Shown here in pieces: positions 681 to 54,595 of a stretch of DNA of 64,000 nucleotides. This DNA is from an uncultured Nitrososphaeraceae archaeon (GTDB lineage Archaea; Thermoproteota; Nitrososphaeria; Nitrososphaerales; Nitrososphaeraceae). The notes below the pieces were generated by a model. The model was not told the origin of the DNA, made no database searches, and saw only the letters and a program-made list of their open reading frames with translations. Location: the NCBI GenBank assembly GCA_963729045.1, contig CAVSMN010000021.1, positions 64,001 to 128,000 of the forward strand, read 5' to 3'. The position numbers and the translations under genes were made by a program. How positions within the stretch are numbered: position 1 is the stretch's first letter; every line of letters begins with the position of its first letter.

Positions 681-2511
681 ATGAGTAGCATTATCTAATG
701 TAAATACTCTGTCTTTAGTTATAGTTTCAATATCATTCATTTTACTTTTAGGTCCAACTTCAATGACCATGAATGTATTTGCTACAACCAATACAGCCAA
801 TCAAGGCATAGGCCAATCACAATCTGCAATCCAACTTGGTGTTTGTGTATCGGGGAACGGTACACTTTTTTCGTGTAATAATTCGAATACACAAAACCAA
901 GCAAACACTGGAAACAACGCATTAGTACAACAAGGTGGCAGTGGTAGTGGTGGCAATTCAGCCAATCAAGGCATAGGCCAATCACAAACCTCCAACCAAG
1001 GTAGTGGCGTAGCCTCTGGTGGCAACACTACTAATTCTGGAAACAACGCAAATACTCAAAACCAGACTAACACTGGAAACAACGCAGCAGCTCAAAGTGG
1101 CGGTAGTGGTAGTGGTGGCAATTCAGCCAACCAAGGCATAGGCCAATCACAAACCTCCAACCAAGGTAGTGGCGTAGTATCTGGTGGCAACACTGCTGGT
1201 TCCGGAAACAACGCAAACACACAAACTCAAAATAATACCGGTAGTAACGCTGTCGGACAACAAGGTGGCAGTGGTAGTGGTGGCAATTCAGCCAATCAAG
1301 GCATAGGCCAATCACAAACCTCCAACCAAGGTAGTGGCGTAGTATCTGGTGGCAACACAACTGATTCTGGAAACAACGCAAATACTCAAAGTCAAACAAA
1401 CACTGGAAACAACGCAGCAGCTCAACAAGGTGGTAGTGGTAGTGGTGGCAATTCAGCCAACCAAGGCATAGGCCAATCACAAACCTCCAACCAAGGTAGT
1501 GGCGTAGCCTCTGGTGGCAATACTGCTGGTTCCGGAAACAACGCAAATACTCAAACTCAAAATAATACCGGTAGTAACGCTGTCGGACAACAAGGTGGCA
1601 GTGGTAGTGGTGGCAATTCAGCCAATCAAGGCATAGGCCAATCACAATCCTCTAACCAAAACGCACAATGTGTTTCTGGTGGAAATACCGCAAATTCATG
1701 TAATAACACAAGTACTCAAAACCAAGCAAATAGTGGAAACAACGCAGCAGCTCAAAGTGGTGGCAGTGGTAGTGGTGGCAATTCAGCCAATCAAGGCATA
1801 GGCCAATCACAATCCTCTAACCAAAACGCACAATGTGTTGGTGGCGGAAACGTAGCTGATTCATGTAATAACACCAGTACTCAAAACCAAGCAAACAGCG
1901 GAAGCAATGCAGTAGGACAACAAGGTGGCAGTGGTAGTGGTGGCAATTCAGTGCCAATCAAGGCATAGGCCAATCACAATCCTCTAACCAAAACGCACAA
2001 TGTGTAGCAGGCGGCTCCTTAAGCAATTCATGCAGTAACAAAAATACACAAAGTCAAACAAACACTGGAAACAACGCAGCAGCTCAAAGTGGCGGTAGTG
2101 GTAGTGGTGGCAATTCAGCCAATCAAGGCATAGGCCAATCACAATCCTCTAACCAAAACGCACAATGTGTTTCTGGTAAAGATGCTATAGTATCTTGTGA
2201 CAATGAAAACTTCCAAAAACAAGTAAATAGTGGAAGCAACGCATTAGTACAACAAGGTGGCACGGGGTAACACTGCTAACCAAGGCATAGGACAATCACA
2301 AACATCCAACCAAGGTAGTGGCGCAGCATCTGGTGGCGACACAACTGATTCTGCAACCAGCGCAAACTCACAAAGTCAAGACAACAGTGGAAGCAATGCA
2401 GCAGCACAACAAGGAGGTAACGATGATATTGATAGCGGTGATAGCGGTGATAGCGGTGATAGCGGTGATAGCGGTGATAGCGGTGATGATGGAGGAAATT
2501 CATCTGACTGA
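681..2511 (+). CDS. Secreted Q/N/G/S-rich protein with 10 tandem 55-aa repeats and an acidic (DSG)6 tail; split by indels near 684, 1951 and 2265
   Basis: ORF 763-1968 holds 7 units (ANQGIGQSQ.SNQ....VSGG.....S[CG]NN...Q.Q.N.G.NA..Q.GGSGSGGNS). The repeat resumes in a shifted frame after a 2-nt insertion (tcagTGccaat), giving 2 more units, then ORF 2257-2511. In-frame sequence upstream of 763 reads VALSNVNTLSLVIVSISFILLLGPTSMTMNVFA (signal-peptide-like). ATG at 681 is one base out of frame, with a TATA-like TTTATATA at ~650-657. Confidence 0.8.
796..2410 (+). repeat. 165-nt coding tandem repeat (10 copies)
   Basis: gccaaYcaaggcataggccaatcacaa recurs at 796, 961, 1126, 1291, 1456, 1621, 1786, 1953 and 2118, with a variant at ~2275. 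Confidence 0.95.
2431..2484 (+). repeat. (GATAGCGGT)6 microsatellite encoding (DSG)6
   Basis: Six perfect 9-nt copies, read directly. Confidence 0.95.
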
Positions 2512-3048
2512 GGCATAAGCCAATCACAAACCTCCAACCAATACAGTGGCGCAGCATCTGGTAGCGTAACAACTAATTCTAGAAAAGACTTTATGATGCT
2601 GTGACCCTTATTCATCACATCAATATTTTCAATACTTTTGTTTCTGCCTAGGAAAGAAATACCGAAGTTGATTTTGAAATATTTGATAATATAACTGCTG
2701 GCGTTCCTTTCAGGATATCCCAAATATAAGTGATAAAGATGTTTAGACCAGAAGAGAAGGATTACCTAATGAAGGAATATTCTTAAATCAAAGGAGATAG
2801 TGAGACAACATCTGTCACTATTGAATAGGTTTTCGAATTTTTTGAATTTGGAGGATGTCTTGATGAAAGGTGATATCAACTTGTAAATCTTACTGGAAAC
2901 GACTCCGAATTACTCCTGAATACAAAACCACAAAAAAGATTGCAACTTCAACATTCGAGATATGCTATTTTACTATTTACCGACTCAGTTTCTGTTAACA
3001 TAGGACTATGCTGACCTCTTTTGATATTTCTTTGGTACTATTCCCTTG

Positions 3049-3618
3049 TCACTTTTCTAACGATGTATCTATTGTAAGTGTATTAGATACCTTTTCTGAA
3101 CCTTGAGTATTAGTCAAATAAACTTCCGCTTTGATTTTTTGTATTGATTTATCTGTAAAAGAAGTTGCAAATTGAATTATGCCTGATTGACCAACTACGT
3201 ATCCTTTTTGAATAGATGATGTTTTTAAAGGAGTTCCATCAGACAAATACACTTTCATAGTTCCTTTCATAGGGGTGTTTACCAATGATTGGTCATTTGT
3301 TTGATAATTAACAAGAACCTTAAGCTGATTAAAATTACTATCTGTCAGAGGAGCAAACTTTGCAGAGTCTAGTTGAATTGTTATCTTGTCCTGTGAGGTT
3401 GGAATATCAACCTTTTGTTGGGCTTGTGCGTATACATCGTTAATAATTCCAAAATTCTCACTATTTATGACAACAGATAGCGAAATTATCAACGTAATTG
3501 CAATAGTGATGATAGCAATTTTCGGGTTTGGGATAAAAATAAGCCGGTTGCAATTCTTGTCTATGGAGTTTATGGTTCTCATTAATACGTTTGATATACA
3601 TTCTACATTTACAGACAT
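3049..3618 (-). CDS. Secreted or membrane-anchored hypothetical protein
   Basis: 189-aa ORF; hydrophobic segment followed by VYA-QAQ, then a beta-rich domain; true start may be further downstream. Confidence 0.65.
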   Translation of the reverse strand: MSVNVECISNVLMRTINSIDKNCNRLIFIPNPKIAIITIAITLIISLSVVINSENFGIINDVYAQAQQKVDIPTSQDKITIQLDSAKFAPLTDSNFNQLKVLVNYQTNDQSLVNTPMKGTMKVYLSDGTPLKTSSIQKGYVVGQSGIIQFATSFTDKSIQKIKAEVYLTNTQGSEKVSNTLTIDTSLEK

Positions 3619-5054
3619 TAAATTAAGAGTAATACTATATTATATAGCCAATAATGCAAATATATAATTAAACATAATTAGAACAAAAAGAGATCGTCCT
3701 TTTTTCTTTTATTTTCTTCTCTTCAGGTATTATGGTTTTAAGATATTTAACAATTAATCAATTGCATTGATTCGTATTTCTATGCAGAATTTCATTCATA
3801 AAATAATCTACCAATCCTTTGAAAATATCTCATCTTGATAAAAATAGTGCTTTCTAGATAATTACAAATCTACTAGTACACATAGATATCAGTTAACAAT
3901 TATTAGTGACTGCTTGGTTTAATCCAAAATAACTATGTTATCATATTGAAATAAAAAATAGAAAATCAATAGGGGATTAAATTAAAGCTTGCTTCGTATA
4001 ACCTGAAATATTCTTTTTCTAGCTAATATGCCCACAGAAATTGATATAAACAGTACCCATAGACCTACCATCGTGGATTCTGAATACTCTATCACTTTCT
4101 ATTTAGTATGCTAGTATAATTATATGTTTTATCCTCTCTTGTGAATCTATTCATATTAAAAAAGTATTTATTATTTTTTGAGATCCAATTACTGCAATAC
4201 TTGTTCGATAATTATTAATAACTTAATCTTGCCTTTGCAAATTTTACCCACATAAAGATTGTAAGATTTATAAAATATATTTTCTTGATTCCGTCATGTT
4301 ATATAAATAAATCATTTACCAGATAAAATATGTATTTTCCCACCCTTCATTCAGAGGTTGGTATCATTGATTATACCCTTAATCGATTTCAGATACTGGT
4401 AATCCGTCTATACAAACCAGCAATATCTATTTCATCCTGTCTTATGTACTACATAGTAGAAAAATTAAATGTCACACTTTAATAGCCACGCATAGATACC
4501 AAAGGTAACAAATAAATCCAATGTGCATTTTTTTAGATTTGGAACTCACAATTCTAATCCATCAATATGCTATCTATAGAACTTGTGGCTGAATTGAAAA
4601 TAACTATGTAGTTATTTTAATTATTAGTAACATCATGTACTCAATCACCTACTTTGAAAAATTATTTTGCAGAACCTTATGAGACAAAAGCCTCTAATAC
4701 CAAATTGGAAGATACATCTTTTTTTTGATTTGACCTCATCAACAAAAACTCTGTTTTCTATTTAATTTATGAGATAAATATTTCGATAATCTGAAAAATC
4801 TTCGAGTATAGTTCTTTTAGATTGATTATCGTTAACTTGTATCCTGCCTTAAATTAAATTCAAATAGAAAATATCGAAAATTAAGATAGATGCTTATTTC
4901 ATTGTGATCTCCGGTACTAACACCTTCCATATTGATTCAAAACAATCTTATTATTTATTAGAATAAATTACTCGTCATTTAGTATAGAGAAAAATTGCAG
5001 TATCAAGTGTCTAAACTGTGATATTGGTAATTTCACTTATAAATTATAATTACA

Positions 5055-5327
5055 ATGAGTAACATAACAAAAAACTATAAGGTTGGACTTTTTGCAATGT
5101 TTATCGCAGCTGCTTTAATAGGTTCAGTAGTAGCATTTGGAGATAACATGGCATATGCAGGCGGAAAACACAAAAAATCTAATGACGCAGAACAGGCAAT
5201 TGAACAAGACCAAGAGAACGAACAGAATGCACAATGTGTGTCTGGTGAATTTACAATAGCTGGATGCAACAACTTAGGCTTCATGTTCCAAAACAACGAA
5301 GGTAACTTAGCCTTAGGTCAAAGATAG
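5055..5327 (+). CDS. Small secreted protein: signal peptide + one Q/N-rich repeat unit (Cys pair)
   Basis: Signal peptide ending AYA, then KKSNDAEQAIEQDQENEQNAQCVSGEFTIAGCNN...QNNEGNLALGQ, homologous to the 763 repeat; T-tract after the stop. Confidence 0.85.
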   Translation: MSNITKNYKVGLFAMFIAAALIGSVVAFGDNMAYAGGKHKKSNDAEQAIEQDQENEQNAQCVSGEFTIAGCNNLGFMFQNNEGNLALGQR

Positions 5328-5635
5328 ACCTCTTTTTTTTGCTTTTATTAAGATAATATTTAAAAAGTAATTATTAAAATTGGTAAAACTTCGTGCAATC
5401 CAAGTTGATATTATCTTCCAATTTATCTTACTTATTTCCAAAGATTAAATTTGTTAGTAAATACTAAAATATTCTAATTAAGCAAGAGATCTAATGAAGC
5501 AGAATTTCAGAGATAGAATTTGATAGATTGTTTGTAAATATGTATAGACAATAATGGAATAAGCATAGGATACTAACGGTCTTGTGAAGATATACTATAT
5601 AGTTTCTTAATATACTATTAGTCAAAAGAAGATAT

Positions 5636-7153
5636 ATGAATCCTAATACTAAATTAAATAAAAATAACCATATTACAAATACCAATACCAATGATGATCA
5701 TGTCAAACCTCAATTAATGGAAACCTATATTGATGCCTTTGCTTCTTCAATCGAATTCTATTCTAGGGTAAACCGAGCGTTTATTGACGCCTTCTCTGTG
5801 CCATTAATTGATGCGAGAGAAGATCTAAAAGAAATAAAAAAGGAAGCCATAGCTGGAAAGGACTTGATGTTTAATAGCTATGATAAACAACAAGAAATCT
5901 ACGATAAATCTGAAAAAATAATACTTTCTAAAATACGTAATAAATTTGATACAAACTTTAGAGATAAAACATTTGTGGCATCTCTTTCAGAATTTATTAA
6001 AAGCTATTGCGACCTTGCAAAAATTACAGGTACTGGATTGATATATCAATATATCTCCAATGTAAACTCCTTTTGGAATACTGAATTTATCGAACCTTTG
6101 AGAGACGTAATATATAGAACCCCATCTCACAAAATCCACTCTGAAAACAAATATTCTCTGTTTCATTATGATTTGCCTCAAGAAAATAATGATAGACAAA
6201 AAAACGATGAAGATAAGATTGTTAAAAAGAGGATATCAGGTACAAAACTAACAACTGGTGGATATACTACACCTGTTTCTACACCACTACTGATTATCTA
6301 TGCCTTTATTAACAGAAATTACATACTTGACCTTCTTCCCGATTCGAGTATCGTTAGAAATTTTCAAAAACAAGGCTTTGATGTATTTACAACAGATTGG
6401 GGGACTCCAAGTGCATATGATAAGGAATTAACTGTGGGACATTATGTGAACCATTATCTTACCGACGCAATCGATCACATATTAGAGCATTCAAATTCTA
6501 AAAAGGTTTCATTATTGGGTTATTGTTGGGGAGGTGACCTGGCTCTTATGCTAACAGCACTCCATCCTGAAAAAATAAAGAATATAGTGACTTTTGCAAC
6601 ACCAGGTGATTTTAGCATTGATAATAATCTTTTAAGTGTGTGGACAAAAAGTATAAACGCAGATTCTATTGTAGATACTTTTGGTAATACGCCTAGTGGG
6701 TTTATTAACAGTTCATTTTTGCTAAGAAGTCCAATAGATTTTCTGCACAAATATCCTCACTTTTTCTTTGAGGGAAAACCTAAGGACATGGATTCTATAA
6801 TCCAATTCTTTGCAACAGAGACTTGGCTGTATGATAGTCCTCCTATAATAGGTGAGATATACAAACAATTCGTAAATGACTGTTATAAGAAAAATCTACT
6901 AATAAAAAATGAAATGATAATAGGGAAAAATGATAAGATTGATTTGAGTAAAATTAAACAGCCTTTCTTAAATGTAATAGCAAAGAGGGATGATTTGGTT
7001 GATCCTGCATCAAGTAGAGCGATAAATAATGCGATAGGAAGTTTAGACAAATCGACTATAGAATTCAATTCAGGTCATGTTGGTGCCTGCATAAGTTCTA
7101 GGGCACATGAACAGTTATGGCCCAAGGTAGGCGACTGGTTAAAGAGCAGATAA
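5636..7153 (+). CDS. phaC: Class III poly(3-hydroxyalkanoate) synthase PhaC with a long N-terminal (possibly PhaE-like) extension
   Basis: PLLIIYAFINRNYILDL, TTDWG, lipase box GYCWGG, DDLV (Asp) and GHVG (His). Confidence 0.9.
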   Translation: MNPNTKLNKNNHITNTNTNDDHVKPQLMETYIDAFASSIEFYSRVNRAFIDAFSVPLIDAREDLKEIKKEAIAGKDLMFNSYDKQQEIYDKSEKIILSKIRNKFDTNFRDKTFVASLSEFIKSYCDLAKITGTGLIYQYISNVNSFWNTEFIEPLRDVIYRTPSHKIHSENKYSLFHYDLPQENNDRQKNDEDKIVKKRISGTKLTTGGYTTPVSTPLLIIYAFINRNYILDLLPDSSIVRNFQKQGFDVFTTDWGTPSAYDKELTVGHYVNHYLTDAIDHILEHSNSKKVSLLGYCWGGDLALMLTALHPEKIKNIVTFATPGDFSIDNNLLSVWTKSINADSIVDTFGNTPSGFINSSFLLRSPIDFLHKYPHFFFEGKPKDMDSIIQFFATETWLYDSPPIIGEIYKQFVNDCYKKNLLIKNEMIIGKNDKIDLSKIKQPFLNVIAKRDDLVDPASSRAINNAIGSLDKSTIEFNSGHVGACISSRAHEQLWPKVGDWLKSR

Positions 7154-7519
7154 TGACAAATAAGGACATTCGCTTAGTTCTTGGACTAGGGCAATTTATC
7201 CTTCTTGATTGACTTGCCTTCCCGTAACGACTCACTAATCAGACGAGGGGAGATACTTTTCTCACATGATTTCCTTGACATATGCGGCTAGTCAAATGCT
7301 TAAGTGGATAAATCCTATTTGTGGTATTTGCTTTTCTATGTAAGATATATATCATGCAATTCGTTCAAAGATTGATACGACAATTTTGTTATAATGATGA
7401 ATTACGGTAAGACTTAACTATGTACAAAATGACTGTATTTGCTGGATTTCCAAATGACAAATAGAAAAATAAAAATTAGAAACAGAACTATTATTAAGTT
7501 TATTTAATACAATATTTTT

Positions 7520-7899
7520 TCAGGCTGTGGAGTTGGTCTCATTTATGGTTATTAACGACACATTGTCTGAATTTTCGTTAGTCACATAGATATTACCATT
7601 ACTTGGGTTGTCATTCTAAAGTTGCGGACTTTATCTGTTTACTGCAGTCAATATGTATGGATCACTTTGTTGGTACCGCTATCTATTACAGATATATCTC
7701 CTGAATTAAAATTGGATACATAGATATTACCATTACTTGGGTTGTACTCCATATTCTGTGGAGACTCTCCCACTTTGATAGTAATCATTGTCGATTGTGC
7801 CCATACTTTCCAGGTATTCAAAAAAGTAGGAGACAAAACAATTGCCATCAGCAAAACAATATAACATATATATCTAGAAATAGATTTTTTATCTTTCAA
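7520..7899 (-). pseudogene. Short or frameshifted YVTN/YncE-type beta-propeller repeat protein
   Basis: Signal peptide, IKVGESPQNMEYNPSNGNIYVSNFNSGDISVID; a second NPSNGNIYVTN copy lies out of frame at ~7575-7610. Confidence 0.65.
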
Positions 7900-8316
7900 T
7901 TCCTCTTGTTTTTCAGGTAATCACATAAACAGATTGATAAGTTTTTTATACACTTTCATAAAATTTCTGTTCTTCGTATTAACCTCGTTAGCTTAAGGAT
8001 GTTTTTACATGGATTTATACAATTCAAAACCAGTAAAGGCGGCGGATGAAACCGTGTATAATCAAGTGGTGCTAATTCCTGTTCTATCTTTAAACAAGAG
8101 CAATCCAAAAATGATTATCATAAACTCGCAATTTAGACTCCTCAGGGTAGTACAAATAAGTCTTATTTGAGTAGCAGCTTGCAATAAAGTTGGAGATTAA
8201 AATTGAGAATATTTTAGCATAATTTAGTAGTTATTACCTCCTATTCAATGCATGAAAACTTGTTGGACTGATAAGTCAAAAAGCAATTTTATATATTATC
8301 ATTCATTGTTATTGAT

Positions 8317-11078: not shown

Positions 11079-11319
11079 TTAGTGGCAAGTGGTGATGCAA
11101 GCGGCTGTTGTCCGGAATAACCACTAGACCATGAGAATTGATCTAAACCCACAACATTAGACAATTATTTTTTCTCATTTTATCTCTTCTTCTCATTAGA
11201 TGGTCAAACTGGAGATCATTTAATTTGAACCTCTATATTCCTCACAATATTTTAGATACATCGGAAATCTTTTTTGATAAATACCAAAATTTAAGGCTTA
11301 TCGTTTTCATGTCGTCTAT

Positions 11320-12836: not shown

Positions 12837-12843
12837 GTTTATG

Positions 12844-13747: not shown

Positions 13748-15075
13748 TTACCAGCCTAGAATTTCAGCAGTCTTTTTGGCGGCATCATCCAGAGCCTGTT
13801 TAGGTGCTTTTATGTTGTAAAAAACTTCATCGATAGCCTGTTTTATGTTCTCAGCAATTTGAGGATATTCTGGGATGTTTGGTCTACTATGACCCTCCGG
13901 AATCATAGATATCAGTTCAGAGTAATAAGGTATAGTACTATTTAGTTGGGATGAATAGTTACCCTCGCCAATTGGTTTTTGAGTTGGAAGATACCCTTCT
14001 TGTTGTAACATGGGGGTTAAAATCTCAGGATCCACCATTAGTGTCAACAACTCCCATACCAAATCCTTGTTAGGAGATGTTTGTGGAATACTTAATATCC
14101 ACCCACCCATCATTGTGGTGGTATTAACGTTTGATGATGGGGTTGGGAACAGCGGAAGCATTCCAATCTTTTCATCCAGTGAGTTCCATTCACTTTTAGG
14201 AAAAGTACCTAACAACCATGATCCTTCTAGCATAACTGCAAACTTTTTATCCGCAAATTCCTGTCCCCAAAAGTGATTAGGTTGAGGTGAAATACCTGCG
14301 TCTACTTGTTGCTTTAAGAATTCCAATGCCTTTACACCCTCCGAGCTGTTGAATGCCGGATACCAATATGATCCCTTAACAGGATGATTGTCTCTTTGTT
14401 CAAGGATTTGACCGCCTAGCATCCATAAATATGGATACCACATATCAGGAGAATGAGCGGCTCCCACAAGATGTCACTCCCTGGATCCCACGGTCTTTTA
14501 ATAAATCATTTAACTTCTTGGCGGATTCGATATATCCATTCCATGTAGTCAAATTCTCTGGATTAATCCCTGCTTCTTTGAGAAGATCTTTCCAATACCA
14601 CATCGCTCGAACATCAGTCCAAGACCAAATACCATAGGTTTTATTTTCATATTTTCCTCCTTCCCAATTGGTTGGATACCATTCATTTGCTCTTCCCCAC
14701 TCATTTACTTTATCGGTAATGTCCGATAAGAAAACCACCCTCTGCAAATTCTCCGAGCCATATTTGATCAACAGATATCAAATCTAAGGGAGTTTGTCCT
14801 GCCATAGAGGTTAAGATCTGTGTTCTGGTTGCGTCATATGGCAATACGCGATAGTCAATTTGAATGTCTAATTCTGGATGGTTTTGTCTTAATTTGTCCA
14901 ATGCCTTTTCAAATAAAATATCCCATCTTTCTTTAGGTTCTGCTACAATCGCAGTAAGTGTAACTTGCTTTTGCTGCTGCTGCTGCCCATACACCTCCCC
15001 GTAATTATTTTGTATAAAAAAAGTTACAAAGACTAATAAAACTAGTATAGAAAATGAATGCACATATAATTTCAT
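13748..15075 (-). CDS. Carbohydrate ABC transporter solute-binding protein (split by two indels)
   Basis: Three overlapping ORFs (14710-15075, 14445-14771, 13748-14467) form one family-1 SBP with a signal peptide; DQIWLGEFAE, GGWILSIP. Confidence 0.88.
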
Positions 15076-20149: not shown

Positions 20150-21077
20150 ATGGATATCAAGCCACAGAATGTATTAGATTATCATGGTAACAACGCCATA
20201 TTTATGGTTTGGAATTTTAAGAAAGATATAGACTTCAAAGATGGTTTTAAGAGGATTAGCAAATTGGTTATCAATCTTAATAATTCAGCTGATGACCGTT
20301 TTCCTGATTCCGGGGCAAGTTGCGTAATGGGGATTGGACATAATGCATGGCTTCGGCTTAATCTCCATGTTCCGCTCCCTAAAGAATTAGAGAACCTTTA
20401 TGCCTATTGTTGGTGAAAAACACACAGCAGTTTCTTCCAAAGGAGATTTGCATTTTCATATCAGAGGTAATGGTAGCAGTATGTGTTATGATATGGCACA
20501 TGCATTATCTGACGTGTTGGAACCGGTGGCTATAAGCACGGAAGAAATCCATGGTTTCAGATATCAGGACGGTCGTTCCATTTTAGGTTTTGTTGATGGG
20601 ACTGAAAATCCTCATGAACAGGAACGGGCAATATTTGGGTTGGTTGGAGATGATGATCCTGTTTATAAAGGTGGAAGTTATCTTTTTGTTCAAAAATTTG
20701 TTCATGATTTAAATGCATTTGAAAGATTATCAACTGAAGAACAGGAAAAGGTAATTGGCAGATATAAAATGAATGATATCGAAATGCCGGATAATATAAA
20801 ACCCTCAAATTCTCATATTGCCTTGGCCAATGTTGGTGACGAATTCAAGATTATTCGTGATAACATGCCTTTTGGAAACATATCCACCAATGAAATGGGC
20901 ACTTATTTTATCGCATATGCCAGCACATTCAGTACCGTAAAGAAAATGCTTAATAATATGTTTATTGGTTCTCCTAAAGGAAATTATGATAGGTTATTGG
21001 ATTTCAGCATACCCAAAACAGGAACTCTATTTTTTGTTCCAACATTAGATATGTTAGATGACTTTTCATCAAGTTAA
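20150..21077 (+). CDS. Dye-decolourising (DyP-type) peroxidase, split by one indel at ~20400
   Basis: DLHFHIR, GFVDGTENP, GGSY, SHI (proximal His), IIRDNMPFG, FFVP. Confidence 0.9.
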
Positions 21078-32505: not shown

Positions 32506-32764
32506 TTAGTTGTTTGATTTGTCCTAAAGCATTGTTGCCTTTATTGAATTGGTCTTGGAAGTTAAAGTTATTACCAGATAAGAATGAACTTCCACCAGAA
32601 ACTACTTGGCTATTTTGTTTTGATTTTTGAGATTGTTCGATTATTTGTTTTGCTTTGTTACTCTTTTTTGCTAATGCGTCTTCTGAAATTGCCAATGGGG
32701 CTAAGACTAAAGCTAGTGCAAGAACAACTGCTGTTGATACTAGTAATGTTTTACTTGTGTTCAT
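32506..32764 (-). CDS. Small secreted protein: signal peptide + one Q/N-rich unit (Cys-free variant); 1-nt insertion near the 3' end
   Basis: MNTSKTLL…ALA-KKSNKAKQIIEQSQKSKQNSQVVSGGSSFLSGNNFNFQDQFNKGNNALGQ(SNN*); removing one T at ~32520 restores the ending of the 54338 paralog. Confidence 0.85.
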
Positions 32765-37419: not shown

Positions 37420-38616
37420 CTAATTCCAGTCAGGTGTTATTGTGTTTTCCATAGGTTTCTCCTTTAAGATAAAAGCCGTAGTTGCAAGGACATTTTTTAG
37501 GGCCCATTGAACAAACTCCTCTGAACCTATTGGTATTGGAGCATCAGCTTCAACATATGATATTCCCCTGTTGTCTAATTCTTCTTTGACAGCTTCATAT
37601 CCCATTCCTCCTGTTGCCAGAACAAGGACCACTCTATCTGCATTGTGTGCGGCTAATTTCTCTTCTATTTTGTCGGCTGCTGCAGGTACTGCTGTTTCCA
37701 TTAAATCTGGCCAGTCTTCTCTTGCCGTGACTCCAAAGGCATCAGCATAGCCTATCTTTTGCTGAACATATTTAGCAGAACTTGTTAGCTCCTCTATTTG
37801 AGCCATATCATTCAGGTCAGATCTTGCGCCATGACCAACATTTACAAATATTTCGTTGGATGGGCTTCCATCATTTTCAGAGTTTGACTTTTCTGCTATT
37901 TTGACAAATATCTCTCTTAAAATTCTGTCATCAGGACTAGCTGGTCTTGAGAAGATATGTGTTGCATCACTTGTTTCGCTTGCAGGTGTTGTCATCATTC
38001 CCATATATTGACAGGTATCTGGACCCATTGGGACACCAGGACAGTATTTGAATTGTTCAATTCCTCCAAAGTATCCTCTTGTGACATTGTGGATGACAGT
38101 AGATTCTGGTCCAAACAGATCTGAATACATAAAGATAACGTATTTTACACCTCTATCATCAAGCTTTTGTAATCCTTCATCCCAATTATATGGCATATGT
38201 GTTATGATTTCGGTTGGATATCCTAGCTTTTCAAGGGCTTCCTTAATGGGTTCGGTTTTTTCTGGATCATGACTTCCTGGGTAACCTAACCCATGTGTGT
38301 AAACCAAGACACCTATTTGACCAGGTATCCCTCCCAAATTATTCCCAGAAAATGGAATTATTTCTCTGAACTTTTCTAGGATTTCAGATACATCCATATC
38401 CATAAAGTTCCCAAGATCTATCGAACCAATCTTTTGTTGCACATCATCCAGTTTCTGGTCAATTATCATCTCTGCATTGTCTATCTGTGAATTACCCAAA
38501 ATAGATAAACCCAATGAGTTGGTGCTTTGTGCAAAAACTGATGACTGAAACCCTATTATCAATAATGTCAATACGACAGTTGCACTAATAGTAACGTTAG
38601 TTTTCACAATTACCAT
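37420..38616 (-). CDS. Secreted or membrane-anchored CbiX-like (class II chelatase fold) protein
   Basis: N-terminal signal peptide; two beta-strand-HG motifs (GVLVYTHG, FVNVGHG). Confidence 0.55.
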   Translation of the reverse strand: MVIVKTNVTISATVVLTLLIIGFQSSVFAQSTNSLGLSILGNSQIDNAEMIIDQKLDDVQQKIGSIDLGNFMDMDVSEILEKFREIIPFSGNNLGGIPGQIGVLVYTHGLGYPGSHDPEKTEPIKEALEKLGYPTEIITHMPYNWDEGLQKLDDRGVKYVIFMYSDLFGPESTVIHNVTRGYFGGIEQFKYCPGVPMGPDTCQYMGMMTTPASETSDATHIFSRPASPDDRILREIFVKIAEKSNSENDGSPSNEIFVNVGHGARSDLNDMAQIEELTSSAKYVQQKIGYADAFGVTAREDWPDLMETAVPAAADKIEEKLAAHNADRVVLVLATGGMGYEAVKEELDNRGISYVEADAPIPIGSEEFVQWALKNVLATTAFILKEKPMENTITPDWN

Positions 38617-39208: not shown

Positions 39209-39482
39209 ATGTCCACAATAAAAAACAAATCAATGATCTTTGTATGGTTACTATTTTTGCAACTACATAGTTAGTTGCAGGTTCTTTGACCTCTGGATTA
39301 GACGAACAGAGTGTCTTTGCAAAAACAAAAAATCTAATAATTCTACTCAGGGAATAGGGCAAGAAACAGTAACTGGACAAGAAGCAGTCTGTGAATCTTT
39401 GGGGGATAGTTTAGCATCATGTAACAACGTTGGATTATCGTTTAACTTAAATGATGGTAACAACGCAACAGGTCAACAATAG
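39209..39482 (+). CDS. Small secreted protein: signal peptide + one Q/N-rich unit (Cys pair); indels in the leader
   Basis: Leader MSTIKNKSMIFV/…LVAGSLTSGLDEQSVFA, then NKKSNNSTQGIGQETVTGQEAVCESLGDSLASCNNVGLSFNLNDGNNATGQQ*. Confidence 0.75.
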
Positions 39483-43950: not shown

Positions 43951-43999
43951 GCTTAATACATTCTGACTAATTAGTCAATTATTTTATTATGAAAAATGT

Positions 44000-46721: not shown

Positions 46722-47586
46722 TCATCTTAAGGTAATCTATTCTTCTTAAACATCTTGGAACCTTGTACCTCTTTGAAATTAGGATACTGGTAACACTCAT
46801 TCAATGTTAATATCAGAATACTAATAATGATGCAGGTGTGGGGAAGAGGTTTTTTATTGATTTTCCACCCTTCTTATCTAAAATAGTTATTAGCATGAAT
46901 CTTGAAAACTTACACTAACTAAACCCGATTGCAATATTATGAGTCAACATACAATAGATAGTAATTTCCGGAAATAACGAATTAGATGAAATTATGATAA
47001 CAAAAAAAGTACTAGTCCTAATAGTTGTAGACATAATATCTAATACATGTTGTGGAATCGAGGGTTACGATGTGAAATTCGGTACTGCACTTAACTAGAA
47101 TCATATCTTTTGGATTTATTATTATCTATTATTTGTGTAACCCATCTAAATATCATCCAGATTTCCTCAGACTATACGTGCTATGAGGTACTCAATATTT
47201 TAACCATATGCATATAGTAACGGCCTAAATGTATGGTATCAACTAAAGTACTCTTAAATCATGAATCGATCTATAAAATCATGTCTGCGTTCATATTAAC
47301 AAAAAAAAATTGAAGCATATTTTTTATCATACACTTTTTCCCAAACGACTATACTCAAAACAAATCATATCTATTTTGAATTTGTTGGTTGTCAATAGGA
47401 TACTGATTCATCAGAGTAAATATTATCATCACCTGATGTTTATCTTAAAAGATTACTGCCGTATCATATAATTTTGACATTTCAATATGACAGGGGTTGT
47501 TGATATTTGGCCGATGAGTTAATAGTATTGAATCGAAGATTATATATCAGTAAAAGATCATATATTTATTTTAAGGCGAATAGAAT

Positions 47587-47793
47587 ACGACAAGAGTAAA
47601 ATTTTATAATAACCAACAATTATCCGATATTGAAAAAGATATTAATGAATTTCTGAAGAAAGAAGAGGTTAAACAGTTAATTGATATTAAATTTACCGCC
47701 CTTAGCAAAAACGGTATTGATGAATATACTGCAGTAATTGTTTATCAAGAGAATATGAACCCTGGTAAAGAGGATCCTCAAATGTACGAATAG
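47587..47793 (+). CDS. Cse60/DUF2758-like small protein (ACG in place of a start codon; missed by ORF track)
   Basis: TRVKFYNNQQLSDIEKDINEFLKKEEVKQLIDIKF…YTAVIVY resembles the VKxF…LExxVNxFL…IIDIKY…AxIxY pattern. Confidence 0.6.
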   Translation, partial: TTRVKFYNNQQLSDIEKDINEFLKKEEVKQLIDIKFTALSKNGIDEYTAVIVYQENMNPGKEDPQMYE

Positions 47794-48041
47794 TATTGTT
47801 ATTATCTTATACACTATCAATTTAATTGGCATTTATTACCACATGATTTTCCCAATGTTAAAACAAAATTGGTTTCAAAGTATCGATTAATTACTAAACA
47901 AAAAACACCCTCTGTAAGATTATTTTTTTTCAAATAATCTTTAGGGCTTGGAAACAAGATATCAGACGATTCTACTTTCTTATGGAGTTTCAAAAACAAT
48001 CGGACAAATCCATAATTAATGCATAATATTCACAGAAATGT

Positions 48042-48428
48042 TTACTCTTCGTACATGTGATAAACCTTGGCGATGATGTACCAGGTCCCATCAAGTTTTA
48101 TGAGCGTGTGAAAATCCGTATAATTGGCCCCAAGCGCGTCATTCTCCATGTCGACGCGCAGTACTGCCGTTGTCGGCGTAATAGCTAACACATCTATTCG
48201 TGTCTTGATGTTGGGCGCAGGGCCATTCTTCTCAACAAAGTCGTAGAGGTTCTTGATGGGCCCATGGAGTAACTTGCCATCGGGATATCCGTACATTGTG
48301 GCATCCTTATGAAAGGCCTGGGAAAGGACAGTGACGTTGCCCATGCGTAATCCTTCTACATATAAAGCTACAGTAACAACAGCATCTTCATAGTCCTGAG
48401 TAGGCACATTTTTTATATTCTTTGACAT
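48042..48428 (-). CDS. NTF2-like (putative lumazine-binding) protein
   Basis: YVEG…AFHKDATMYG…YTDFHTLIKLDGTWYIIAKVYH; locally GC-richer than flanks. Confidence 0.8.
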   Translation of the reverse strand: MSKNIKNVPTQDYEDAVVTVALYVEGLRMGNVTVLSQAFHKDATMYGYPDGKLLHGPIKNLYDFVEKNGPAPNIKTRIDVLAITPTTAVLRVDMENDALGANYTDFHTLIKLDGTWYIIAKVYHMYEE

Positions 48429-48639
48429 GGGATTTCTTTTTCAGTGGAAATGAAGTATTTCATGTAAATAAACTTACCATATATGATAAAAATTAAGAGA
48501 TTGAGAAAATCTTAGGTTAATTGATTAGGTCACGCTTGGTAGCTCGATGAGAATTACCAAATGGAGGAAGTCTTAGAATTTGTTAAATATTATTAAATAG
48601 GAAGATCTACTATATTATTCATATTCCTAAATCAAAAAA

Positions 48640-48998
48640 ATGACGATAGCAAAACGTCGGGCAAAGACAATGTCCAATCCAATAGGAAAGGGAAATATGC
48701 AACTTCCACTGAAAATCGGAGGTTAGTGTGGGAATACATCGTATGGCCACTAATTCTAAAGATTAACAGAAATTATTTTACTTCAAGTGAATACCATATA
48801 ATCAGAGACAAAGTTTCGATAGAAAAAAATATTCCTACTTCAAAGGTGTCCGGGGGACTGGTATCACTATTGCTCAAAGGAATTCTCACTCAAGACAAGA
48901 AATATTATTCAATTCATTACAAATTAATTCCCTATATGAGAATAAGATCACAGCTAAATTATGGAACTGTTTTAAGAGAAATTTGTTCTAAAAAATGA
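48640..48998 (+). CDS. Paralog of 35968-36327 (1-nt deletion at ~48690)
   Basis: MTIAKRRAKT…GKG/KYATSTENRRLVWEYIVWPLIL. Confidence 0.75.
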
Positions 48999-49380
48999 CT
49001 AAATGGGGATATACTAATGATTCTCCTATCTTTGCAAATGATTTTTACTCCTTCTCCTTTCTGCTTGTTCACTAGTCAATTATTGTCATGACCATGTTGT
49101 AATCTATTCGTATTAAGAAAAGGCTAGGGCTTGACCCTAATATATTAAAAATATATTGCAAAGTTGGTTTATCCATCCTCAGATAACAAAAATAAACTAT
49201 GAGTAAAATTATACTGTGTCACATCCAATCTCTTCCAAGTCTCATTAATACGATACCCGATGAAAAGGATATAGTGAAACTAAAATTCGTTTATGCGGAT
49301 ATATAGTTCACTTAGTGACTTTTTTTGACAATAATCTATAGGAAAAATCTTTTTATAGATTTATGGTGATAATGACATGA

Positions 49381-49608
49381 TTGAATATGGTCATGGTGGG
49401 TAGTTATATTCAAAAATATATACCTAGAAGGACTGACTTAGCTTTATCAAACAATAAAGACAAAAATAGACAACAATTACCTTCGTGCTATATACCTAAT
49501 TGTCATTCCTATCCCTTATCGCGGTGCACCATATGTTCAAGTTATTGCTGCTATGCACATGTTTATGGTCATGATCATTCAATAGAGAATTTTGAAATAC
49601 TGAAATAA
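49381..49608 (+). CDS. Small Cys/His-rich putative zinc-finger protein
   Basis: C-x4-C-x7-C-x2-C-x3-CC-x2-H-x3-HDH. Confidence 0.55.
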   Translation: MNMVMVGSYIQKYIPRRTDLALSNNKDKNRQQLPSCYIPNCHSYPLSRCTICSSYCCYAHVYGHDHSIENFEILK

Positions 49609-50407
49609 TTTCACTTCAATATTGTTTTAAAAATATATTACTTATCGATGGATAAAAATAGAGAAAGAATATCAAAAGATCTATAATAAACAATCAAGGT
49701 ATTAGAGTTCGTCTGGCTTGCAACTGGGGCAACTTTAGAATCTAACACGATATGCAAGATTGCATCTATTCTTCTAGTTCTTGGAATCATGGTTCAATGT
49801 CTTGATTGTAAATGCTACCTGTAGTTTTATCTTGGGAATGTTTTCTATTTTATGAGTCAGCGGGATTTTAAACCCGAGATCCTCTTTCATAGTAGATATT
49901 GGATTTTGTGCTTCTCTACCACCATATCATCTCTGCTTTTGGAATTTATAGTAATGATAGAAAGTAACTGAATTCTAAATATGATGATTAATACCATAGG
50001 CAATATTGGATTTTCCTTTTTGACACTGTATGATAGAAGAATACTATTGGTTTCAATTGTCACAATAGTGCTCTTCTAGATATGACCTTGAATGAAGTGA
50101 CTAACCTATATACTCATAAAAAAATGCTAAAATAAATGGAAAGACTTGAAAAACTATCATCGAATTATTGATGAAAGAAAAGGTTCTAGACGCTATAGTT
50201 TGGTTGGGTGTGGATGGATTTGGTAGCAGATGAAAATCGGCAGTGCTTTTGGAAGGATTAGTGATAAATCAAACCATGATGATCGAACCAATAGATGAAC
50301 AAAAAAAGATTAGACTTTTGTTACTAACATTCAAAACGTTGATAGGCTACAATGATCTCATCACTATTGATAGAGTGCAAGTTGTCTGACCATCTTTTTC
50401 CAGTGTT

Positions 50408-50421
50408 TTTACATTTGTAAA
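50408..50421. promoter_or_regulatory. Palindromic operator TTTACA-TT-TGTAAA (copy 1)
   Basis: Just upstream of the TATA-like TTAAATA of the YHS gene. Confidence 0.8.
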
Positions 50422-50464
50422 GGTCTGTGGTTAAATATCTTGGTATGCCATGAGATAAGTGTAT

Positions 50465-50609
50465 ATGGCCAAAAGACCCCGTTTGTAATATGAAGGTGGA
50501 TGAAAAGACTGCAGAGCACATATCAGAAATTAACTAAAACAAGATATACCTCTGTTCTTCTGCATGCAAACAACAATTCAATCAATACCCATCAAAATAT
50601 GGATATTGA
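50465..50609 (+). pseudogene. YHS/TRASH metallochaperone (frameshift and in-frame TAA)
   Basis: MAK/DPVCNMKVDEKTAEHISEIN*NKIYLCSSACKQQF. Confidence 0.75.
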
Positions 50610-50634
50610 GACAAATCGCGAATAAATAAAAAAA

Positions 50635-51150
50635 TCACTCTGCAATTTCGGATTTATCCTCATATTTTCTTTTAATTGATTCTATTCTGCCTTGATATTT
50701 TTCAGTATATCCTGATTTGCATGATATACAACAGAAGAATCGCTCAATATCTGCAAATTTCAATATTTTAGGTTTACCATAGACAGGTCCATCACAAAAA
50801 TCACAAATAACGTTTATTGCTAGGCCACTTGCAATTCTTTTCTGAATTTCATCTATTTCATTTTTTAGAATCTTATTCTGAGGATTTTTATCGGTGTTCT
50901 CTTTTCTTTTGTTATTTTCATCAAGGTACTGCAATTGAATGAAATTCTTTTCTTTTGATTCTATCTTCTCAAAGTCAAAAACCGGTAGGATCCCCTTGAT
51001 AAATCCTACGTTAACCAACCTTTCATAACGTGCCTTTACTGTTGGAGTTGTTATTCCTGTTTCCCTTGATATTTGTCTAAATGACTTTCTGCCATTCTCT
51101 AGTAGTGATCTTAGAATGGATACATCGATTTCATCGAGGCTGAGTGGCAT
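50635..51150 (-). CDS. Lrp/AsnC-type HTH regulator with C-terminal TRASH domain (archaeal CopR-like)
   Basis: LDEIDVSILRSLLENGRKSFRQIS…; CDFC…FFCCISC. Confidence 0.88.
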   Translation of the reverse strand: MPLSLDEIDVSILRSLLENGRKSFRQISRETGITTPTVKARYERLVNVGFIKGILPVFDFEKIESKEKNFIQLQYLDENNKRKENTDKNPQNKILKNEIDEIQKRIASGLAINVICDFCDGPVYGKPKILKFADIERFFCCISCKSGYTEKYQGRIESIKRKYEDKSEIAE

Positions 51151-51185
51151 TTAACGATGTCAATTTACCCATCTTCTCATATTAT

Positions 51186-51203
51186 TCTTTACATTTGTAA
51201 AGA
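51186..51203. promoter_or_regulatory. Palindromic operator TCTTTACA-TT-TGTAAAGA (copy 2)
   Basis: 36-53 nt upstream of the regulator start codon. Confidence 0.8.
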
Positions 51204-51263
51204 GTAGCGGTATGTCTCTATGCTTGCCTGATAAGTTTAGCCAAAAAAGGAAATTAAATCTAG

Positions 51264-51494
51264 TCAATATTGTGCAGCTCTAATGAATTTGTATCCCGAT
51301 TCTTCTAATCTTGCTTTAATGTCGTGTTTAGTTATTGTTAAGGGATCAAACTCAACAATCACTGTATTTGTTATATTGTTTATATCTATTTTCTTGATTC
51401 CCTTTTTATCTTTTAATTGTTTTTCAATGATAGGTTTACATGTAGTACAATACATTCCGACAACTTTAAAGTAGGCTTTTTCAGAGGGTGTCAA
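51264..51494 (-). CDS. HMA-domain copper chaperone (CopZ-like)
   Basis: VVGMYCTTC…LEESGY. Confidence 0.85.
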   Translation of the reverse strand: MTPSEKAYFKVVGMYCTTCKPIIEKQLKDKKGIKKIDINNITNTVIVEFDPLTITKHDIKARLEESGYKFIRAAQY

Positions 51495-51602
51495 TAATTC
51501 TATTTTTGTGATTTATTTAATTAATTGAGCTGCTAAAAAGGTAAGTATTCTAAAGTGTCAGAGAATCAGCGATTCAAGAAGATTTTACCGACATAAACTA
51601 AT

Positions 51603-51616
51603 TTTACATTTGTAAA
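51603..51616. promoter_or_regulatory. Palindromic operator TTTACA-TT-TGTAAA (copy 3)
   Basis: About 10 nt upstream of the TTATATAT box of copA. Confidence 0.8.
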
Positions 51617-51654
51617 GCCTTGTTGTTATATATCTATTTATTATTATTTATTGT

Positions 51655-53896
51655 ATGGCAAAGGACCCAATATGCGGAATGTTCGTTGAAGAAAATGAAA
51701 ATTCCATTCATTATACTAAAGAAGGAATATCCTATTATTTTTGTTCGTCTCAATGTTTAAACGAATTCCGTGAACCCGAAAAGGCTCTAAAAAAATTAAA
51801 AATACATGTTATAATCAGCATAGCACTGACAATACCAATCGTGTTGCTTAGCTTGCCACATATGATTCCACAACTGGGACATCTTTATCCAATCGAAATG
51901 ATGGGATATATCAATTATGTACTTTTAGCTTTGGCTACTCCAATACAATTTTGGATTGGATGGCGTTTTTACCAAGGATTCTGGGATGGTATCAAAGCAA
52001 AAGCATCAAATATGGATACATTGATTGCTATTGGAACAACAGCTGCATATGTATACAGCGCCATAGTTACCATCATTCCTGGATACTTTCCATTTACGGC
52101 GGTATATTTCGAAACAGCTGCAATCATAATTACTCTTATCTTGATAGGAAGACTTCTTGAAACTAAGACAAAAGAAAAAGCATCAAGTGCAGTGAGAAAG
52201 TTATTAGATCTAAAACCCACGACTGCACATGTATTAAGACCTGAAATAAGAGAAAAAAATTATGCAAGCAAAGATACTAATAATAAAAGTAATAATGCTT
52301 TGGATGGTTCTAGACTGAAGCTAGTTTCAAAAGAGTTGAGAGAACTTGAAATTCCAGTGGAAGAAATCATACAAGGCGACTTAATGATCATACGCCCCGG
52401 TGAAAGAGTTCCTACTGATGGAATGATAATAGATGGTTCATCTTCGATAGACGAGTCTGCGATAACAGGCGAAAGTGTACCTGTTGACAAAGTAAAAGGC
52501 GACGAAGTAATTGGGGCAACTATTAACAAGAACGGCCTCTTAAAAGTAAAAGCAACTAAGATTGGTCAGGATACAGTATTATCACAAATAATAACCCTTG
52601 TAGAAGAGGCCAAAACAGGCAAAGCCAAAGTAGAAAGAATGGTAGACCAGGTAGCAAAGTATTTTGTTCCAGCCATTGTAATAATAGCAATTGGAGTGTT
52701 CCTCGGTTGGTATTTTATAGGTAATGCAGGATTAACTTATTCCATATTGGCATTTGTCTCTGTCATGATAATAGCATGTCCTTGTGCTTTAGGATTGGCT
52801 ACACCAGCCGCATTAATGATGGGTGCGGCAAAAGGCGCTGAAAATGGTATCTTGTATAAAGGCGGCGAGTATATAGAAATGGCAAGTAAAGTCAATTTGG
52901 TAGTATTTGATAAGACTGGAACATTAACAGAAGGAAAACCGTCTGTTACTGACATCATTACACTTGACGAAATAGATGATAACGATCTTTTAAGACTAGC
53001 AGCTATAGGAGAATCAGGTTCAGAGCATCCATTGGCTAAGGCTATAATCACAAAAGCAAACGAAAAAGGGATTTCTACAGTTTCGCCTGATTCATTTGAA
53101 GCGGTAGTAGGTTATGGCCTTAGAGCCAGATACTCTAACTATGATATAACGATAGGAAATAGAAAAATAATGTTAGACAATAATATTTCAATTTCTGGAA
53201 ACATCGAAACAAAACTTTCGGAATTAGAAAAGGATGGTAAAACTGTCAGTATTAGTCTCAATAGACAATCATTTATCGGGATTAATTGCAATATCTGATA
53301 CCATAAAGGAAGATGCCAAAGAAGCGATATTTGACTTAAAAAACCTGGGAATTAAATCAATAATGCTTACTGGAGATAATGAAAGAACAGCAAATGCCGT
53401 CGCTTCCCGAATTGGGATTGAAAGAGTAATAGCCCAAGTTTTACCAAGTCAAAAAGAAGAGATTGTAGGCAATATTCAGAGAAAAGAAAACAAAGTTGTA
53501 GCAATGGTAGGTGACGGAATTAATGATGCTCCAGCATTAGCCAGAGCAGATTTGGGAATTGCAATAGGATCTGGAACAGATGTTGCCAAAGAAACTGGTG
53601 GCGTAATTTTAATAAACAACAATATTAGAGACGTTGTAACCGCTTTAGAATTAGGAATGAAAACTGTCTCAAAAATAAAACAGAATTTGTTCTGGGCTTT
53701 TGCTTATAATACGGGATTGATACCAATAGCAGCAGGTGCATTGGTTCCTATTTTGGGACTATCTGTATTTGGGTGGCTTCCAATTCTTGCTGGGGTTGCA
53801 ATGGCCATGAGCTCTGTCACTGTTGTTACTAATTCTCTATTTTTGGGAAGATATAAACCAAGAACAAAAAATAGATTGAAAACAAAATTCGTTTAG
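51655..53896 (+). CDS. copA: Cu(I)-translocating P1B-type ATPase with N-terminal YHS domain (one indel at ~53245)
   Basis: DPICGM…FCS..C, TGES, CPC, DKTGT, SEHP, TGDN, GDGIND, YN, MAMSS. Confidence 0.93.
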
Positions 53897-54337
53897 ACAT
53901 CATCTTGTTCTATTCTACTCTATTTTGATGTTCTAAAACGACTATCCTTGGATTACCTATATCTACAGATTACGCTGTTGCAGACACTCTATCAGCTACT
54001 GCTCTTACAGAACTCTTAATTGCCTCAGAGATTCTGAAAAAATATTAGAAGTTTTGTAATAAAACCCTCATTATTAGATAGAACAAACATTTTGCTGAAT
54101 AATTATCGATTTTCGATTATTCAATTATACGGTAGGTATCTTTTCAGATCTCCTAACTTGAAGTCATTGTTGCCAATCGTTGTATTATCAAAATCCTTAA
54201 ACTGGCTGATACTCACTTTCACTTTTAGTTCAGATCTTGGTAAAAGTAATAATCTCTGTGGGCTAAATACAACCATTATATGTTGAAATTTGAAATCTAA
54301 TTAGTGATAAAGAAATAAGTGAACAATAAAAAAAAGG

Positions 54338-54595
54338 TTAGTTGTTTGATTGTCCTAATGCATTACTTCCGGTGTTAGCTTGGAATTGGAAGTTTAAGTT
54401 GTTGCCTGAAAGTATGGAGTCTCCACCAGAAACTACTTGACTATTCTGTTTTGATTTTTGAGATTGACTAATGATTTGTTTTGCTTTGTTACTCTTTTTT
54501 GCTAATGCGTCTTCTGAAATTGCCAATGGGGCTAAGACTAAAGCTAGTGCAAGAACAACTGCTGTTGATACTAGTAATGTTTTACTTGTGTTCAT
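54338..54595 (-). CDS. Small secreted protein: signal peptide + one Q/N-rich unit (Cys-free variant)
   Basis: KKSNKAKQIISQSQKSKQNSQVVSGGDSILSGNNLNFQFQANTGSNALGQSNN*; T-tract after the stop. Confidence 0.88.
   Translation of the reverse strand: MNTSKTLLVSTAVVLALALVLAPLAISEDALAKKSNKAKQIISQSQKSKQNSQVVSGGDSILSGNNLNFQFQANTGSNALGQSNN

Follow-up and report, generated by a model that had tools for sequence, protein, structure and literature searches.

Putatively secreted Q/N-rich repeat proteins of Nitrosocosmicus: a dispersed gene family as candidate cross-beta component of the cell coat

We describe a family of putatively secreted proteins rich in glutamine and asparagine and built from a 47-aa unit, five genes of which lie in a 64,000-nt stretch of DNA from an uncultured Nitrososphaeraceae archaeon (assembly GCA_963729045.1, contig CAVSMN010000021.1, positions 64,001 to 128,000). 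This whole stretch is called the window, and coordinates given without a contig refer to it. The family proves to be large, nearly confined to the genus Nitrosocosmicus and very highly transcribed, and it is a candidate for the cross-beta material of a cell coat in archaea that lack an S-layer.

Family genes in the window

A preliminary description, made from the letters of the sequence, had proposed that one 47-aa unit is common to the five genes. Six-frame translation recognises the unit at all five places, and a hidden Markov model (HMM) iterated on this genome confirms 14 full copies at 73-102 bits, the best score of reversed sequences against it (the noise level) being 21.5 bits. Signal peptides, KKSN-type starts, GGSGSGG linkers and an acidic (GDS)n tail are all visible in translation. 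The features are as follows.

681..2511, plus strand: long member with signal peptide, 10 units and acidic (GDS)n tail; three indels split the gene in this assembly
681..783, plus strand: predicted Sec signal peptide of the long member, ending in V-F-A; frameshift near 690-693, putative cleavage site, pattern family-wide
790-930, 955-1095, 1120-1260, 1285-1425, 1450-1590, 1615-1755 and 1780-1920, plus strand: long-member units 1-7 (by HMM), linked by GGSGSGG
1947..2252, plus strand: long-member units 8-9, both with the Cys pair; the indel near 1947-1953 shifts them into a second frame
2269..2508, plus strand: long-member unit 10 (without Cys) and acidic tail, the original frame being restored after the indel near 2262-2264
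2512..2592, plus strand: degenerate 11th unit 3' of the long gene's stop, 25.5 bits
5055..5327, plus strand: intact single-unit member of 90 aa; unit 5181-5321 with Cys pair; an oligo-T tract follows
32506..32764, minus strand: single-unit member; unit 32519-32659, V/G type
39209..39482, plus strand: single-unit member; unit 39336-39476 with Cys pair
54338..54595, minus strand: intact single-unit member of 85 aa; unit 54350-54490, V/G type

Within the long member the Cys pair is present in units 1, 6 and 7 and replaced by V/G in units 2-5. The genes at 32506-32764 and 54338-54595 share 86% nucleotide identity, and the products of 5055-5327 and 54338-54595 are 83% and 84% identical to N. franklandus proteins VFJ13373.1 and VFJ14909.1, respectively.

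The long gene has the signal peptide, ten units, linkers and acidic tail first ascribed to it, but not in a single open frame: the ATG at 681 reaches a stop after 5 codons, and indels occur near 690-693, 1947-1953 and 2262-2264. We compared them with contigs of four other runs, two of which cover each indel and which may derive from relatives or paralogues. The extra bases at 693 (X1, X4), 1947 (X4, X16) and 2264 (X1, X4) are absent there. Since the other runs lack exactly these bases, the indels are assembly error or decay in this strain. Unrelated genes are frameshifted in this assembly too (3 of 21 test genes, with in-frame stops in 3 more), so that we take the locus to be intact, with 10 units, in close relatives and probably in this organism as well. 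The four short genes likewise have the proposed layout of signal peptide, KKSN-type start and one unit, but only 5055-5327 and 54338-54595 are intact: in 32506-32764 a single surplus base ahead of the stop lets the frame continue to 32378, and the signal region of 39209-39482 contains two frameshifts and an in-frame TAG. The genome is 87% complete. Elsewhere in the window the genes of a P-type ATPase with a YHS domain (51655-53896) and of a solute-binding protein each fall into two ORFs (open reading frames), and a DyP peroxidase is apparently cut at its N-terminus (the latter two at 13748-15075 and 20150-21077), all of which is consistent with indel errors of this assembly.

Extent, architecture and sequence pattern of the family

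Five genes turned out to be a small part of the family. Genome-wide, the unit HMM gave 101 matches in 48 loci at a threshold of at least 22 bits; at a minimum of 35 bits there are 43 loci with 1-10 units each (counts of 1, 2, 3, 4, 6, 7 and 10 occur), 30 of which have a signal peptide and all units in one frame, while 13 are broken or incomplete in this assembly. One-unit genes are the commonest. The genes look monocistronic, with a signal peptide, a short K/G/H/D-rich leader, the units and a stop, and by eye most of them are directly followed by an oligo-T tract. One two-unit gene occurs in four copies with an identical first unit (G000:C13:142, C13:42080, C18:41447 and C18:53592), which suggests recent dosage amplification. 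The proposal that members carry signal peptides holds well beyond the window. Among 347 full-length homologues (Met start and at least 27 residues ahead of the first unit; judged by untrained hydropathy rules, many being close kin) a hydrophobic N-terminus is present in 332 and an A/V-x-A motif after it in 312; a lipobox and a hydrophobic C-terminus were found in one homologue each, and in 327 the protein ends no more than 3 residues from the last unit.

Conservation within the unit is strikingly regular. Across 501 units without gaps (effective number 175), conserved even positions alternate with variable odd ones in columns 2-20 and 30-48, the even columns reading N, A, Q, I, Q, Q, S, Q, S, C and then C, N, N/S, Q, Q, N, G, N, L/A, Q. 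The mean charged fraction is 0.02 in even columns versus 0.18 in odd ones. The face made up of odd columns, taken to point outwards, is diversified among units, with columns 33 and 35 being 80-89% hydrophobic. Lys or Arg makes up 3% of unit residues and Pro 0.2%, and N-glycosylation sequons are depleted (0.38 versus 1.30 per unit). Cys20 and Cys30 occur together in 297 units, are both missing in 187 (mostly V and G instead) and stand alone in 17. They are the top pair by mutual information with average product correction and the sole clear long-range signal, which by itself is unable to tell a hairpin from an arch. In the register set by the Cys pair the volumes of facing side chains anti-correlate weakly (r -0.54, permutation p 0.049; six alternative registers gave r from -0.17 to +0.57), with large-small pairs such as I8/G42, A4/L46 and S14/Q36; this is weak evidence, and suits sheet-to-sheet packing. 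The dN/dS ratio between paralogous units is 0.17 (159 non-independent pairs) and shows that the family is under purifying selection.

A profile of 51 units found the unit in all 34 genomes of the genus at 3-113 copies each: 73-113 in 13 genomes, 27-53 in 8 and 3-16 in 13, some of the last near-complete. This unevenness possibly reflects a split into two sub-lineages, or a failure of the profile to find divergent units. In other genera of Nitrososphaeraceae 3 of 106 genomes matched, through a contig-edge fragment, a half unit in a 277-aa protein and a genuine sister family in genome G018. We discarded the match in G100, a 47-aa piece at a contig start that is possibly misbinned, and the one in G288, the sole match outside the genus in a phylum-wide sample of 401 genomes, where a 40-aa frame lies within a longer ORF of another frame and is attributed to chance. 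In a profile search 314 of 1.84 billion representatives scored E<=0.001, and among the best 150 of these the legible ones share the family architecture, most being without taxonomy. Homologues with a name belong to Ca. Nitrosocosmicus or to unclassified Nitrososphaeraceae/Thermoproteota, apart from one metagenome-assembled genome labelled Nitrosopumilus by its depositor. The family is thus archaeal, as first supposed, and nearly confined to Nitrosocosmicus. The sister proteins of G018, which belongs to another genus of Nitrososphaeraceae, are L111, L114, L108 and L113; they have a signal peptide, a His/Lys leader and 1-3 shorter units with shorter strands, the same C-x-S-G-x5-S-C-N-N arc and the same swap of C/C to V/G, and their genes are clustered. 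Comparison of the sister and main profiles gave 96% in HHalign. The sister profile has 15 matches in G018, weak ones in 24 of 29 genomes of the main genus and one weak match in G015, and none in the remaining 152 genomes, including three others of G018's genus.

Transcription, predicted fold and comparison with known systems

Expression was taken from Dataset S3 of PMC12448741, RNA-seq of N. franklandianus in biofilm versus planktonic culture. VFJ13373.1 (our P0100; also WP_134483263.1) corresponds to NFRAN_1051 by accession order and its length of 270 nt, and VFJ14909.1 (P0298; 258 nt) at the same offset to NFRAN_2587. Both are tabulated there in family FAM004011_0, and P0299 lies four tags away from a third member. 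FAM004011_0 comprises 28 genes, all annotated 'hypothetical', and is listed for N. franklandianus and not for N. viennensis or N. maritimus (PMC12448741); six further members, at 258-924 nt, have the lengths expected for one, two or about five units. In the tabulated values the family sums to 49,421 transcripts per million (TPM) in biofilm and 57,062 in planktonic culture, that is 5-6% of TPM, a measure which favours short genes only insofar as it counts transcripts. Twelve of the 28 genes are within the top 100 of 2,768, NFRAN_2587 ranks 4th, and the 924-nt member is likewise highly transcribed. The median log2 fold change (log2FC) of biofilm versus planktonic is 0.12, and one gene of 28 reaches 1.0. 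For comparison, the S-layer gene of N. viennensis has 22,694 and 32,376 TPM, rank 5 and a log2FC of -0.22 (PMC12448741). For the two firmly mapped members and their tabulated family, transcription is therefore shown to be of S-layer scale and constitutive. Contigs of RNA runs also cover family genes; repeats collapse in them, so they cannot rank expression and were not used as evidence.

These values bear on the roles first suggested for the proteins. That the short ones are bulk subunits fits a single-unit gene at rank 4, while the long gene is in no way set apart as nucleator, unit counts running from 1 to 10. A biofilm-specific matrix finds no support in the median change over the 28 genes, though a matrix role as such may apply, since planktonic cultures of N. 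franklandianus aggregate too (PMC12448741). A constitutive cell coat fits the data better.

AlphaFold2 was run on window units 1-7 (48 alignment rows) and on a natural 3-unit protein (71 rows). The 7-unit model (predicted local distance difference test, pLDDT, 62.4; predicted template-modelling score, pTM, 0.58) has 14 long strands, of 21-22 and 19-20 residues in each unit, arranged as a two-sided beta-solenoid of 7 rungs; the 3-unit protein gives the same strand pattern at pLDDT 68.7 and pTM 0.46, in the best of five models and the one exceeding pLDDT 60. Because conserved uncharged residues alternate, the Cys pair covaries and AlphaFold2 returns this fold, we predict that the unit is a strand-arc-strand rung of a two-sided parallel beta-solenoid, one rung per unit. 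It had been asked whether the repeats form a stack of hairpins or a solenoid, and both models answer with the solenoid; the cross-beta, curli/Fap-like character proposed for the unit survives in them, but the hairpin gives way to a parallel strand-arc-strand. VIA-align placed two-sided beta-helices of the SufB/SufD type on top for the 7-unit model (Z 13.8-14.9; best root-mean-square deviation, rmsd, 2.7 over 205 residues), followed by P. korlensis CsgA (Z 10.7, rmsd 8.9 over 164 residues). The 3-unit model has E. coli CsgA as its best match (Z 5.0) and also FapC (Z 3.8), both middling, and ice-binding solenoids are among the weak fold matches. A match to a viral fold (E 4e-4) has a template-modelling score of 0.17 and is meaningless. 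The predicted fold would be curli-like but with a beta-arch about twice as long, and such likeness implies neither homology nor function.

Units also occur in fusion proteins. In three proteins they are fused C-terminal to RTX calcium-binding repeats (assigned by Pfam), and in this genome N-terminal to other domains, which are unassigned or were judged by eye. Fusions with one to three units are G000:C11:102266-103304, C10:116828-117355 and C12:66149-66728, as well as P0162, P0226, P0249, P0258 and P0142. Outside the window, G000:C13:105148-105981 looks by eye like a beta-propeller/PKD fusion ending in an apparently permuted unit, and the fragment G000:C21:10991-11200 also has one at its end (strand 2, linker, strand 1; by eye). 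Such permutation is what a continuous solenoid would allow, and permuted end units on other domains suggest display by co-assembly.

That the unit belongs to no named family stood up to HMM-based searches of Pfam, NCBIfam and the PDB, none of which gave an accepted match. Of the 44 window ORFs searched against Pfam, the four from the family and a frame of the fifth gene extended at its N-terminus had no match. Pfam and NCBIfam searches with 93 full-length members, and NCBIfam with 51 units, gave scattered weak matches (best E 2.6e-5, one member), none of them shown above the curated cut-off among the best 25 families listed. The unit profile had no match at E<=10 among all PDB chain sequences, FapC structures included, and the ESM Atlas returned unnamed Nitrososphaerota clusters and no usable named one. 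Nor did we find a description of the family in the published literature, most subscription journals lying outside the search. The curlin repeat PF07012 is absent from the genome, an E. coli control being detected. The same holds for CsgG (PF03783; 4 of 14 controls detected), so that the absence of a csgG-like gene, first noted for the window, extends to the whole genome at its 87% completeness. There are no fapA-F neighbours among the 44 window ORFs scanned, no genome-wide search for FapF having been made. ChpA-C (PF03777) and rodlin (NF041022) gave no match in the genome, with no positive control passing the cut-off either; rodlin matched 1 of 93 proteins (E 2e-4) and none of 51 units, neither model appeared in the NCBIfam unit scan, and ChpA-C is not among the best 25 of 47 Pfam families. 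Streptomyces chaplins and rodlins are small secreted amyloid-forming proteins of a surface coat, with short and long forms and often a Cys pair. The wall-sorting signal of long chaplins has no counterpart in the long forms of our family (hydrophobic C-terminus in 1 of 347).

CsgA homologues have 4-62 repeats of 23+/-5 aa with 7-residue motifs (PMC10192328). Curli CsgA/CsgB and our family have in common secretion, strand-arc-strand rungs with inward N/Q ladders and polar outward faces (predicted for the family), variable repeat number and many paralogues per genome (PMC10192328); they differ in that our unit is 47 aa long with strands of about 20 residues and a Cys pair in the arc, and in that the family is archaeal and consists mostly of one-unit proteins from dispersed genes with no operon. 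In FapC three repeats of ~30 aa adopt an irregular triple-layer fold, and its gene belongs to the six-gene fapA-F operon (PMC12459412). Secreted, imperfect Q/N-rich repeats with linkers and a beta-solenoid cross-beta fibril are common ground with Fap (PMC12459412), for our family by a weak model match only, while the family is set apart by regular units numbering 1-10 and by the lack of an operon and of a sequence match. Archaeal sheath (SH) proteins are described from Methanospirillum, Methanothrix, ANME-1 and Thermofilales, with up to 40 copies per genome, clustered genes and a core in which one large domain contains two six-stranded antiparallel sheets; the available text of that paper does not mention Nitrososphaerales (PMC11576556). 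Like our family they are multi-copy, secreted and archaeal, with a few top-transcribed members, repeated cores, passenger domains, disulfides (presumed for the family), an amyloid-like nature (predicted for the family) and no conserved assembly genes nearby (PMC11576556), and by analogy they appear to be its closest functional counterpart. Our family differs from them by its 47-aa rung, predicted parallel stacking and dispersed genes; single-unit proteins are too short for the SH core, and VIA-align listed no SH chain, which is no exclusion. Lepidopteran chorion, a eukaryotic amyloid protective coat of many paralogues with one conserved domain and a beta-serpentine fold, offers an analogy only and warns that solved amyloid folds can differ from predicted ones (PMC13252134). 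In short, the family fails the curli tests of sequence and gene context and the Fap test of sequence and matches no Pfam, NCBIfam or PDB sequence family, and its likeness to curli, Fap and sheath proteins would be one of working principle.

Among the other window genes, a PhaC-like alpha/beta hydrolase (polyhydroxyalkanoate synthase-like, 5636-7153) lies immediately 3' of the member at 5055-5327. A glucose/sorbosone dehydrogenase-type domain with a cupredoxin fused at its C-terminus is encoded at 62161-63855, and at 37420-38616 a 398-aa protein with a signal-peptide-like start, His-containing motifs and no Pfam match.

A proposed cell coat and its alternatives

The genes slp and slaB are absent from five Nitrosocosmicus genomes, and cryo-electron tomography (cryo-ET) shows a wall of ~18 nm with thin hair-like filaments of ~30 nm, the composition of which its authors leave open (PMC11559005). 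We propose, at a probability of about 0.55, that the family is a cross-beta co-polymer and contributes to the thick wall or the hair-like coat of these cells, which have no S-layer. Since the proteins have no lipid or membrane anchor, they would be exported by Sec and released by signal peptidase. Two strands of ~20 residues would then face each other via inward ladders of Q/N/S/G/I/A, with a Cys-Cys pair, which presumably forms a disulfide, closing the arc of roughly two units in three. The inward face is common to all units, so that single-unit peptides, multi-unit chains and unit-bearing fusions may stack together at open solenoid ends; the outward hydrophobic positions of strand 2 could serve side-by-side packing of ribbons, and the polymer would belong to the coat seen by cryo-ET. 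Stacking between molecules we hold to be highly probable. An isolated strand-arc-strand rung should be unstable by itself, but genes with one unit lead the family in number and in expression, which makes intermolecular stacking the simplest reading. From geometry, strands of 20 residues would make a ribbon ~7 nm wide, and 60 rungs would span 30 nm. A fuller version is offered tentatively, its odds falling somewhat short of even: the S-layer would be replaced by a wall or hair coat of single-rung beta-arch peptides from 30-50 dispersed paralogues with a shared Q/N zipper, disulfide-locked, assembled with no chaperone or pore and displaying passengers by unit fusion.

Several points weigh against the coat. 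Accession and length tie just two of the 28 FAM004011_0 genes firmly to the unit family; for a third the link is approximate. Confidence of the models is moderate, no residue exceeding pLDDT 90, and Foldseek found no match at E<=0.001 in the PDB, with CsgA and FapC on top as non-significant hits (FapC E 1.1). The ~30-fold spread of copy number within the genus is more than one would expect of an essential wall, although divergent copies may escape the profile and lower the counts. The authors of the cryo-ET study compare the hairs with a glycocalyx of glycoprotein or glycolipid and report that the envelope has a double-membrane-like arrangement (PMC11559005), and the depletion of sequons, as far as sequence can tell, argues that the units are not glycan carriers. 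An anchor to the cell is not evident among the 347 homologues (one lipobox, one hydrophobic C-terminus). Our literature search found no protein-level, fibre or localisation data, and a search for Nitrosocosmicus proteomics yielded nothing relevant.

The same polymer could instead be released as a loose intercellular matrix that glues together the suspended aggregates and biofilms characteristic of Nitrosocosmicus, a reading near to the role first suggested. The missing membrane anchor speaks for this, as does the attachment of N. franklandianus as preformed aggregates with granular extracellular polymeric substances (EPS) and without the known adhesins of S-layer-bearing ammonia-oxidizing archaea (AOA) (PMC12448741), and aggregating planktonic controls could mask induction. 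The tabulated data, however, give no biofilm induction, and the level and constancy of transcription match those of an S-layer gene; moreover, scanning electron microscopy shows thread-like EPS in N. viennensis and granular EPS in N. franklandianus (PMC12448741). We regard the loose matrix as unlikely, at roughly one chance in four. Less likely still is a secreted, non-polymerising role, in which soluble disulfide-looped peptides or small solenoids would bind metal, ammonium, ice or minerals, buffer redox state, or serve in signalling or antagonism. Such roles would suit small secreted peptides that have a Cys pair, leaders rich in His, Asp or Lys and a diversified outward face. Multi-unit chains could be self-contained solenoids, and ice-binding solenoids are among the weak fold matches. 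Against this, a lone rung would be unstable while one-unit genes dominate in number and expression, both Cys are missing from about one unit in three, the genes seen in the window have no linked immunity gene, transporter, processing protease or capping repeats, and the sole bacteriocin-like HMM match is noise (E 0.06).

An expansion of a low-complexity ORF that is largely neutral or selfish and by now in decay could account for the broken or incomplete loci (13 of 43) and the near-identical recent copies, but it is largely refuted and, in our estimate, very improbable: the low dN/dS, the Cys covariation, presence in 34 of 34 genomes and very high transcription contradict it, other runs lack the indels of the long gene, and frameshifts affect unrelated genes as well.

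The make-up of the wall and hairs of Nitrosocosmicus, a soil nitrifier without the S-layer that other AOA possess, is stated as open (PMC11559005), and so is the mode of attachment of its aggregates (PMC12448741). For both, a family that is among the most transcribed genes, nearly genus-confined and annotated merely as hypothetical is a testable candidate, and as an insoluble polymer it would easily be missed by tryptic proteomics because its units contain so little Lys or Arg. If the coat proposed here is true, Nitrososphaerota would have a functional amyloid of the solenoid type, for which our literature search found no earlier report, and it would be a fibre of one-rung subunits made without a dedicated export machine. 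It would then bear on ammonia tolerance, aggregation and the access of viruses to these cells, and would offer a simple programmable fibre.

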